Source: Candidatus Polarisedimenticolia bacterium (GTDB lineage: Bacteria > Acidobacteriota > Polarisedimenticolia > JACPZX01 > DASXTC01). From it: 64,000 nucleotides of DNA. Made by a program: the position numbers and the translations under genes. Position 1 is the first letter of the stretch, and each line of letters begins with the position of its first letter. The DNA is taken from positions 69,558 through 133,557 of the forward strand of contig JBOGOC010000060.1 in NCBI GenBank assembly GCA_050747525.1, given 5' to 3'. Positions 10,357 to 12,464 of this stretch are shown here, in pieces. The notes beneath the pieces are model-generated. The model saw only the letters and a program-made list of their open reading frames with translations. It ran no database searches and had not been told where the DNA came from.

Positions 10357-11124
10357 TCATGAATCTGGCCATGTCGGTGGAAGGTCTGGGACCTCGGCCA
10401 GGCGGCGCCCTTCAACAAGCGTCATCCGACCTATGAAAGCCATGGCAGACAGCAAGTAGTTCAAATTTTCGAAGCTCATGGCCAACTCGTACGAGAAGTT
10501 GAACTGCTTGTCAGGCTTGGACAATTTCTGATAGATGTCGAAGGAAGGCTGATTCGGATGGACAAATTCGCTACCGAAGTCGTAATCAGACAGTAGCAAG
10601 TTCTGCCCTTCTGGACTCCCTCTCAGGAGATTATCGATATGCCTAGAAGCACCTCGGAGGACTTCGTTGATGTGATAGGGCTCCGGGTATGAGGGGCTTG
10701 TTTTCGCCATCAGCTTGTTGCCGGAAGTGAGCTTGTTAACCGCCTTGGCAAGAGCCTCAGGGCTTTTTTGGTCGATTCGCCTTTCGATCTCTCGCTGGGC
10801 AAAGATCAAGAAGGCAAGGGTCTCGTAGGATGCTCGCAGAAGTACGAAGGCCGACAAGATGGCACCTTCATTGACGGAGCCGACCCCCATTCGGAAGAGA
10901 TCCGCGCCGCGCATGAGACTCGCATTCGAGAGACCTCGACAGGAACGTGATAACTGCCGTACGTCGGTAACGCCAGCCTCAACTGAGTGAAAACTCAAAG
11001 AACCGAACCAGTTCATGACTTTATCAATACGTTCAGAGGCTGCCCTCAAGTCAGGGAAGCGATCCAAAATGTTCTGCACGACTCGGATAGAGTTCATCAA
11101 CTGGCTACCGTCCTCAGAACGCAT
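10357..11124 (-). CDS. Hypothetical protein in low-GC island; contains Rx4H (HEPN-like) motif RGASRH
   Basis: 255 aa from ATG (complement 11122-11124): MRSEDGSQLMNSIRVVQNILDRFPDLRAASERIDKVM...EVLRGASRHIDNLLRG.... Local GC ~45-52% vs ~68% surroundings. No recognisable family. Upstream part of the longer ORF (to 11406) is a fragment of a response-regulator receiver domain (KVLCLALESEGYRVLEAPDGREGVARYGAHRPALAIVD) and is probably not part of this gene. Confidence 0.35.
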   Translation of the reverse strand: MRSEDGSQLMNSIRVVQNILDRFPDLRAASERIDKVMNWFGSLSFHSVEAGVTDVRQLSRSCRGLSNASLMRGADLFRMGVGSVNEGAILSAFVLLRASYETLAFLIFAQREIERRIDQKSPEALAKAVNKLTSGNKLMAKTSPSYPEPYHINEVLRGASRHIDNLLRGSPEGQNLLLSDYDFGSEFVHPNQPSFDIYQKLSKPDKQFNFSYELAMSFENLNYLLSAMAFIGRMTLVEGRRLAEVPDLPPTWPDS

Positions 11125-11340
11125 CGAAGCCCCCTCCTCGCGCCCAGCGGCGTGGTCGATGACGAGAATCCCGCGCACCGTCTTATCGACGATCGCCAGC
11201 GCCGGCCTGTGCGCCCCGTAGCGGGCGACGCCCTCGCGGCCGTCGGGGGCCTCCAGGACGCGGTAGCCCTCGGATTCGAGGGCGAGGCACAGGACCTTGT
11301 CCGTGCCCCTAATCTGCGCAGGGGTGGTTGAAGAATTCTT
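11125..11340 (-). pseudogene. Response-regulator receiver (REC) domain fragment
   Basis: Translation ...IRGTDKVLCLALESEGYRVLEAPDGREGVARYGAHRPALAIVD matches the middle of a CheY-like REC domain (LxxxGYxVxxAxxGxEAL...PDLVLLD), but the N-terminal DD acidic pocket and the downstream half are absent. Abuts the low-GC segment (EcoRI-containing AT-rich junction near 11330). Confidence 0.35.
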
Positions 11341-12074
11341 GAATGAGGCTTGGGTGGAAAACGGTACGGGATCCATGCAGAGGGTATCTACATGTATCCA
11401 ATACACTTAGGGCATGGATGCGTTCTTAGCGCGAACCTGGTGCGCTCGCGCCTCTAACCGCCGGCGATCCGCCACGATGCTCACGGCCACTGATCTATCG
11501 CGCCGAGAGGCTTGCGGATGACCGCCCTTTTGGAGAGCTGCCGCGTTGATGGTACGATAGGCTTCCTCCTGCCCGGGGGAGCCCCGTCCCCTGTTCTCTG
11601 AAGACACCAGAAACCGCCGCCGGACGCGCCATGAAACGCACCGGCTACCTGGGCGTCGATGTCTACCTCCGCCGACGCGGTGTAGATGAGAGATTCAGGC
11701 TTCTCGTGTCGGAGATCTCCACAGGCGAGCAAGACGCCCTGAGCCTTGCTCTTGAGGTGGTCAGCAAAATGCGAGTCGATTTCCCTGAGTACGAGTTCCT
11801 GCTACTGATCGTAGGTCGCGGGGGGCAACCGCCCAGGAAGTGAGCCAAGACGGCGCAGCCTCATTTCTGCAGGACCTTGACGATCTCCTAGACCTTGATC
11901 GACTTCTTCTCAGCGTTCCTTGTGGCCAGGATCTCGAACTGCTCGCTCTCGTGACCCCACAGCGCATCGGGATTGTCGACTCGCCAGAGTTCCTTGTCTT
12001 CTGTCACGAAGACCATGCCGCCCGGCTTCCAAGCCGAGTTGACGTGCTCGGCACCCGCGATGCATTTGCGGACG

Positions 12075-12257
12075 CAGGCCGCGCCACCGGTGCTGGTGAA
12101 CGGGCTCCACGTCAACGGCACGACGCTCGGGCTCAGGCAGGTGATCGAATACGGCCGTCGTCGACGGCCCGAACACCTTCGAAGTCGTCGCGGTCGACGA
12201 GGCGGGAAACAGGTCCGAGCCGGTTTCAGCCACCTTCGACCTGATGTTCTGCCACTA
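12075..12257 (+). pseudogene. C-terminal fragment of an Ig-like/cadherin-like secreted protein gene
   Basis: Frame translation ...VNGTTLGLRQVIEYG / TFEVVAVDEAGNRSEPVSATFDLMFCH* resembles the end of a bacterial Ig-like (BIG/PKD) domain. No start, signal peptide or upstream domains. Lies in the fragment-rich zone 11.4-12.45 kb. Confidence 0.25.
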
Positions 12258-12464
12258 GCAGTCTCCTGGGAACCCCCCTCGAGGGGATCGACCAACTCCT
12301 CGAGGGGGGCGATTCGCGCGGCATGCGGCCAGGCGTCACTTGAGAAGTGCCGTCGGCTTAAGTCGCACCCCAGGTGGTCGGAGGTAGGAGACTACTGCAC
12401 CGACTCGAACATGAAGCTTCGTCCGAAGGAAAGCGCCGGTAACAGGATCGGCATTGGCCGCGGG

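Follow-up and report, generated by a model that had tools for sequence, protein, structure and literature searches.

Why does a single gene of strikingly low GC (guanine plus cytosine) content lie among broken coding fragments in a GC-rich genome, and what might its product do? The question is raised by 2.1 kb of DNA between pelG and a thioredoxin-like gene on a contig from a metagenome-assembled genome (MAG) of Candidatus Polarisedimenticolia, a class-level group of the Acidobacteriota. All feature coordinates given here are positions in the 64 kb stretch of this contig that was analysed, referred to below as the window. The gene in question, an open reading frame (ORF) of 255 amino acids (aa) on the minus strand (10357-11124), had been placed by the initial annotation in a wider low-GC island and interpreted as a HEPN ribonuclease (RNase) brought in with defence or abortive-infection (Abi) cargo. 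We find that the gene was acquired horizontally by the Candidatus Polarisedimenticolia genome and that its product belongs to a rare all-α family with no conserved HEPN motif. The best overall explanation of the locus, which we hold to be slightly better than an even bet, is that one foreign gene of a rare DUF5677-like family lies among decayed remnants and may have a role in genetic conflict.

A single gene of foreign composition

The GC content is 0.50-0.56 over ~10350-11100, compared with ~0.67 on either side. The 768-nucleotide (nt) gene itself has a GC content of 0.522 against a window mean of 0.683 (standard deviation 0.033; z = -4.9). No other part of the 64 kb has a lower GC content or falls below 0.60, and none deviates as strongly in tetranucleotide content (z = 5.9 for the gene). 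The GC content at third codon positions (GC3) is 0.62 (0.617), while that of the native neighbouring genes is 0.77-0.88. The dip that had been reported is therefore real, but the extent ascribed to it (~10.36-12.0 kb) is not: the compositional anomaly ends at ~11100-11125, and the island is for this reason one gene wide. Between 11.1 and 12.46 kb the GC content is 0.58-0.65 and the tetranucleotide content is ordinary (z <= 1.4). The junction at ~11100-11125 coincides with the point at which homology to relatives begins and with the Shine-Dalgarno sequence and ATG of the 255-aa ORF. Elsewhere in the window a second, milder low-GC patch (27200-28900; GC 0.57-0.60, tetranucleotide z ~3) carries a 442-aa Cys-rich, secreted-looking ORF (27283-28611, minus strand).

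Three observations taken together lead to the conclusion that the gene was acquired horizontally: its composition is foreign, the family to which it belongs is rare and patchy, and relatives are carried by an integrative conjugative element and by a conjugative plasmid (described below). An abrupt change in composition on a MAG contig might also be produced by metagenomic mis-assembly or by a binning chimera. We consider such an artefact highly improbable. The segment of 0.8 kb is internal to a contig of 173.6 kb and has native composition on both sides, its junction coincides with a gene start and Shine-Dalgarno sequence rather than with a repeat, no repeats flank it, and the identical protein has been recorded on two contigs.

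The start of the gene

The frame of the gene remains open beyond its first ATG, so that the ORF spans 349 codons (10357-11406, minus strand), and the source annotation calls a protein of 339 aa. We place the real start at ATG 11124, giving 255 aa, because the N-termini of all homologues fall at residues 95-104 of the long ORF (that is, at or after the start of the 255-aa ORF), because an AGGAGG sequence stands 8 nt upstream of this ATG, and because the codon-position composition switches there, from a GC3 of 0.62 in the gene to 0.91 in the 171 nt just upstream. Both the 255-aa ORF and the in-frame extension to 11406 had been described previously, and both are confirmed.

The extension had been read as half of a receiver (REC) domain fused to the gene. 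If the source annotation were right, the real product would be a fusion of receiver-like and helical domains, 339 or 349 aa in length, and might be an effector controlled by phosphorylation. The frame is indeed open from 11406 to 10357, and the REC-like piece shares it and is strongly coding-type in its GC3. A fusion is nevertheless very unlikely. The extension occurs in none of the homologues, the internal ATG has its own AGGAGG, and the first 37 codons of the long ORF (11296-11406, 111 nt, GC 0.505) have a non-coding-like composition with no clear coding signal. The piece itself matches Pfam Response_reg with 12.2 bits (E = 0.21; threshold 30.2 bits) and only at positions 15-50 of 111, from α1 to β3. 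NCBIfam CseB (E = 0.0029), response regulators in the PDB (best E = 0.0023) and the rod protein FlgF (E = 0.0049) match it about equally well. Its phospho-acceptor pocket is incomplete: the only Asp is that of '...ALAIVD' at the β3 position, the N-terminal acidic pair and the conserved Thr/Ser and Lys are absent, and the sequence past the Asp departs from REC. The piece is the remnant of some native gene, perhaps REC-like or FlgF-like, and not part of the family protein. An in-frame remnant is present as described, but its likeness to REC is weak and about equal to that to FlgF.

A 20-nt inverted repeat with 85% complementarity (11113-11132 / 11410-11429) brackets the upstream extension exactly. 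We judge it to be due to chance, given that 3.2 kb of sequence contains 22 comparable pairs. A search for sigma-70-like promoters gave none, and terminator-like sites were no more numerous than in shuffled controls. Rfam gave no family above its gathering score in the stretch, the only match being a sub-threshold plant-virus pseudoknot.

A rare all-α family

A word-indexed search of 5.8 billion proteins returned the protein itself and one relative (P0002, 43% identity). An exhaustive HMMER scan of 1.84 billion representative proteins gave 29 proteins at E <= 1e-3, one of which is TPR noise, leaving ~28 clusters. The sole multidomain match, P0029 (885 aa), was considered as a domain fusion and rejected; it is an AAA_16 and TPR protein, and its match is TPR noise. 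The family members are standalone proteins of ~240-265 aa that share 20-40% identity. No paralogues were found in the window or among the neighbouring genes.

In an alignment of 22 members R72, E101, Y181, H189 and P190 are invariant, and R97, G135 and S185 are nearly so. The conserved residues make up a helix pair of the pattern R...R..E and a block that reads Y(D/E)FxSEFxHP(S/N). The window copy retains every one of these eight residues and for this reason looks functional rather than decaying.

The AlphaFold2 model calculated with the family alignment (predicted local distance difference test, pLDDT, 92.2; predicted template-modelling score, pTM, 0.89) is of high confidence and all-α apart from one small β-hairpin. 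A Foldseek search with this model gave no analogue in the PDB (265 matches, best E = 0.38, template-modelling score, TM, <= 0.28) or among the viral structures of BFVD (best E = 0.14), and comparison of the family profile with PDB sequences gave designed coiled-coil noise only. Searches of Pfam, NCBIfam, PHROGs and PADLOC with the window protein and the 22 aligned members returned nothing but sub-threshold matches to DUF5677 (PF18928), and none of these databases has a family match for the window protein, in agreement with the earlier statement that it belongs to no recognisable family.

The matches to DUF5677 occur in nine of the 22 aligned members (best E = 1.9e-4; 22.0 bits against a gathering threshold of 27.1) and, also below threshold, in five of eight metagenomic family members that were tested. 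No member reaches the gathering threshold, and the window protein itself has no match to the profile in the Pfam search. The register is uniform: in each of the five members that were checked, R72, R97 and E101 fall at profile positions 10, 35 and 39, and several members also match profile positions ~123-161, near the Y..SEFxHP block. This consistency suggests that the family is a real but remote homologue of DUF5677, probably a diverged branch that has additional elements at its N- and C-termini. Both groups are helical and accessory, and they share the R...R..E helix pair in one register and, in several members, the C-terminal block. The family differs in adding ~60 N-terminal and ~60 C-terminal residues beyond the 166-position profile, and these additions include the β-hairpin and a long terminal helix. 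We regard the 255-aa protein as a new divergent variant inside a superfamily that is already catalogued but functionless. The link explains no mechanism, because DUF5677 is itself a family without known function. DUF5677 genes are reported to be enriched next to serine recombinases (PMC12632615).

The HEPN assignment

The HEPN assignment had been based on the string RGASRH, an Rx4H motif, which is present at residues 157-162 of the 255-aa protein. Among the 22 aligned members the Arg occurs in three and the His in four, and the window copy alone has both; at this site the sequence of the nearest relative is RDATEY. H189 is the only conserved His, and the conserved Arg columns (72, 97, 111, 178 and 212) include none 4-6 residues before it. 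None of the 22 members matches a HEPN model of Pfam or PADLOC at E <= 1, no HEPN structure appears among the PDB matches from Foldseek, and hhalign gives a probability of 0.13% for a relationship to a genuine AbiU2 HEPN protein. We reject the assignment because the Arg and His of RGASRH are not conserved among homologues, which the initial annotation had itself named as the finding that would speak against it.

There are likenesses to the HEPN superfamily (AbiU2, AbiV, AbiD/F, RnlA), whose members are also all-α, small and standalone, occur in defence-island contexts and carry conserved Arg, Glu and His residues on helices. In addition, some relatives of the window protein have defence genes as neighbours, including in one locus a true HEPN AbiU2 gene. 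Set against the lack of a conserved Rx4-6H motif and of any profile or structure match, these likenesses leave an RNase toxin or Abi effector that uses RGASRH scarcely credible. The case also carries a warning: an isolated Rx4H string should not be taken as evidence for HEPN in a helical orphan protein.

Genomic contexts of relatives

One relative (P0028, locus L002) lies in the cargo of a conjugative element that encodes a TrwC relaxase, a TraG coupling protein, ParA and HTH_17, and directly follows an FRG-domain gene that corresponds to the PADLOC candidate PDC-S15 (E = 1.9e-72). A further member, which matches the family profile with E = 2.5e-36, is encoded on the 214-kb conjugative Bacillus cereus plasmid pFORC47_2. 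The window protein itself has no match on plasmids; only the low-GC branch of the family matches, and it matches this one plasmid. In most loci the GC content of the family gene is that of its host, and a clear deficit is seen only in the window (-0.16) and in L002 (-0.08).

Two further contexts place family genes in tight arrays. In locus L013 the family gene begins 6 nt after a gene for 278 aa, which in turn overlaps an AbiU2-HEPN gene, and all three are downstream of an RHS protein. The segment 183-9669 of that locus holds a same-strand string that follows a 1343-aa RHS-repeat protein and consists of genes for 181 aa, 257 aa, AbiU2-HEPN (6197-7027), 278 aa (4-nt overlap), the family member (7866-8603) and 321 aa. 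This may represent either a defence island or an array of immunity genes for polymorphic toxins. In locus L021 only 7 nt separate a distant member (E = 3e-11 to the family profile) from the preceding gene for an LmuB-type SMC ATPase (E = 7.5e-24). Here the segment 3198-7918 comprises genes for 390 aa and 86 aa without matches, the LmuB-type ATPase (4709-7063) and the distant DUF5677-like member (7070-7918), and is a possible Lamassu-like module. The resemblance to a Lamassu accessory gene is confined to this locus and to a remote member, and the window copy has neither LmuB nor any other ATPase nearby. A TIR effector is found near the family gene in L010 and an NYN protein near that in L001.

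These contexts support the view that the family gene is accessory and mobile and frequently has defence genes next to it; its function is inferred. The earlier proposal of defence or Abi-like cargo is therefore plausible for the family, since relatives are often found beside defence genes, although its HEPN component does not survive.

Possible role of the protein

We propose a single-gene accessory role in conflict for the protein, for example as a phage-defence or Abi-type effector or sensor, and hold this tentatively, at well below even confidence. Such a protein would travel as cargo on conjugative elements and land in defence islands. It would act through the invariant polar set R72, R97/E101, Y181/S185 and H189-P190. 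Judging from the spacing around the turn of the hairpin formed by helices 55-85 and 89-118, R72 and E101 may face each other, and the Y..SEFxHP segment may cap the following helix and contribute to the same pocket, which would be a catalytic or ligand-binding site.

It is possible, if rather unlikely, that the foreign gene is unrelated to defence and is instead a generic accessory of mobile elements, such as a regulator, an anti-defence protein or a polymorphic-toxin immunity protein. The defence neighbours would then merely reflect the fact that the cargo regions of mobile elements are crowded with such genes. The neighbours of the family genes are variable, the context on the B. cereus plasmid is unremarkable, and the L013 gene is downstream of an RHS toxin, where immunity-gene arrays are typical. 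The conservation of polar residues (R, R/E, Y, S and H) across members that are only 20-40% identical suggests a catalytic or ligand-binding site, a feature that is less usual among immunity proteins. The tight spacing after LmuB and in the AbiU2-containing string suggests co-transcription with defence components and likewise argues against this alternative.

Several observations weigh against a conflict factor and, more broadly, limit what can be said of the acquisition. Four of the nine contexts examined contain nothing related to defence, no partner gene recurs across the loci, and no family members were found on viral contigs or phage genomes. The models of PADLOC-DB 2.0 are missed at meaningful E-values by the window protein and the 22 aligned members, among which there are only two isolated marginal matches (E = 0.0076 and 0.029). 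In the sole experimental test in the literature, carried out in Enterococcus faecalis, a DUF5677 gene was not one of the ORFs conferring protection from phages (PMC12632615). The lack of a recurring partner, the lack of PADLOC matches and this phage test also speak for the alternative of a mobile-element accessory unrelated to defence. The invariant R/E and Y/S/H-P residues could also be purely structural, as a salt bridge and a helix cap. No mobility gene, transfer RNA (tRNA), att-like direct repeat or defence gene adjoins the window copy, the contig comes from a MAG, and the nearest homologue, at only 43% identity, gives neither the donor nor the date of the transfer.

A more far-reaching form of the conflict-factor reading would make the family an unrecognised single-gene anti-phage or anti-plasmid effector with a new all-α fold and a new, non-HEPN catalytic constellation (R72, R97/E101, Y181/S185 and H189), spread on conjugative elements and in some lineages accessory to Lamassu-type SMC ATPases or AbiU2-type modules. 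We regard this as speculative and, in its full form, improbable.

Boundaries and flanking remnants

The features of the stretch are listed in Table 1. Synteny with six PelG-bearing loci (59-75% protein identity) ends at the pelG stop codon and nothing downstream is shared; because the syntenic relatives diverge wholly right after pelG, the state before the insertion is beyond reconstruction. No tRNA gene was found in the 64 kb, and no integrase, transposase or recombinase among the genes called within ±10 kb. A search for the flanking direct repeats that an insertion might have left found none, and neither direct nor inverted repeats flank the gene above chance level. Of the earlier proposal, the horizontal insertion of cargo among gene remnants therefore stands, whereas insertion as the cause of their disruption does not follow, there being no repeats, tRNA or integrase to mark it. 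The locus resembles a single-gene compositional islet, in which intact native genes enclose a single gene whose GC and tetranucleotide content deviate, together with truncated native genes. It differs from a classical genomic island in having no tRNA, integrase, direct repeats or insertion sequence element. The most fitting description of the 2.1 kb from pelG to the thioredoxin-like gene is that of a decayed region in which genes have been both lost and gained. Comparison of the stretch with the window by self-BLAST revealed no duplicated pieces, and the tblastx output was compositional noise.

Table 1. Features of the stretch between pelG and the thioredoxin-like gene (positions in the window)
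Positions	Strand	Feature	Evidence
8952-10319	+	pelG, last gene of the pel exopolysaccharide operon; intact native left boundary	Pfam PelG, E = 2.2e-69
10357-11124	-	Intact 255-aa gene of a rare all-α family, probably remotely related to DUF5677	ORF, homologues, alignment, AlphaFold, composition
11125-11295	-	In-frame coding remnant of native composition, ~55 codons, weakly REC- or FlgF-like	Frame plot, GC3 0.91
11133-11138	-	Shine-Dalgarno sequence AGGAGG, 8 nt upstream of ATG 11124-11122	Sequence read directly
11296-11630		Spacer without identified content	Frame plot; no Rfam family above gathering score
11631-11843	+	70-aa orphan ORF, called as a gene in the source assembly	Coding-like GC1 0.68, GC2 0.39, GC3 0.69 (GC at first, second and third codon positions)
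11861-12091	-	Pseudogene, 3' two-thirds (residues ~48-123) of a ~123-aa acidobacterial Cys/His-rich protein	Homologues, tblastn, blastn
12092-12464		Spacer with weak coding periodicity at 12093-12233 (minus strand)	Frame and composition analysis
12465-13661	-	Thioredoxin/AhpC-TSA-like gene; intact native right boundary	Pfam, composition (GC3 0.84)

The clearest of the remnants is the pseudogene. The initial annotation had seen the C-terminal fragment of an Ig-like domain at ~12075-12257. That fragment was not confirmed; the identifiable remnant is the pseudogene at 11861-12091, and it is not Ig-like. A homology search yielded 97 proteins of ~123 aa, up to 91% identical and several of them from Acidobacteria. 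Homology starts abruptly at 12091 (breakpoint 12091/12092), with 87% nt identity to an intact copy (L025; blastn). In the reading frame a TAG stands at 11888-11890 in place of CGG or GAG; the ancestral stop codon, TGA, lies at 11861-11863. Because the N-terminal block is absent and the TAG interrupts the frame, we interpret this segment as a remnant and not as a functional member; the window copy lacks the full-length ORF, comprising both the signal-peptide-like N-terminus and the invariant GWVSDGHC..HMK block, that would mark one. The genes encoding intact copies have different neighbours in each genome. An Ig-like domain is rejected, as an intact homologue is modelled as a small β-barrel (pLDDT 72) with only weak resemblance to an OB-fold.

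The ~123-aa family (P0031-P0127) is highly conserved, with a mean column identity of 62%, 39 invariant columns, a signal-peptide-like N-terminus and an invariant core rich in Cys and His. Its motif, GWVSDGHC..HMK.GG..C.RKCIAGA.H.NP, has a Cys/His pattern that may be metal-binding. It occurs widely in metagenomes, both soil and acidobacterial, and no Pfam domain or PDB relative was found for it.

Two short ORFs had been described in this region as lacking partners. The one at 11888-12295 (minus strand) is composed of the pseudogene remnant and a spurious upstream extension, whereas the 70-aa ORF does lack detectable relatives: none was found in Pfam, PADLOC, NCBIfam, PHROGs or the PDB, the PDB matches being designed-helix noise. 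An ORF at 11407-11607 gave no family matches in searches of NCBIfam and PHROGs. Within the rightmost spacer, ~160 nt downstream of the stop codon of the thioredoxin-like gene on the minus strand, is a perfect 12-bp inverted repeat (12273-12284 / 12298-12309; CCCCCCTCGAGG / CCTCGAGGGGGG) whose arms are separated by a loop of 13 nt. It may form a hairpin of the terminator type, though it has no T-run.

On the left side, the pel genes (window 7000-10319; pelF at 7339-8985) have 74-77% nt identity over 2-3 kb to MAGs labelled Candidatus Eisenbacteria and Binatia, and are 68-69% identical to MAGs labelled Dongiaceae and Kofleriaceae (loci L004-L009). This likeness across phyla suggests either lateral spread of the pel cluster or unreliable taxonomic labels of the MAGs.

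Implications

The locus is a clean example of the horizontal acquisition of one gene in an under-sampled acidobacterial class. The decayed flanks, most notably the truncated small gene whose acidobacterial family is highly conserved, mark a local hotspot of gene loss and gain. The foreign gene is a candidate of modest promise for a new defence-island gene and is otherwise an ordinary one-gene islet. If the conflict-factor reading is true, the family would represent a new fold and a new type of active site among single-gene defence and Abi proteins, and would provide the first functional foothold for the DUF5677 superfamily, with six specific residues as targets for mutation.

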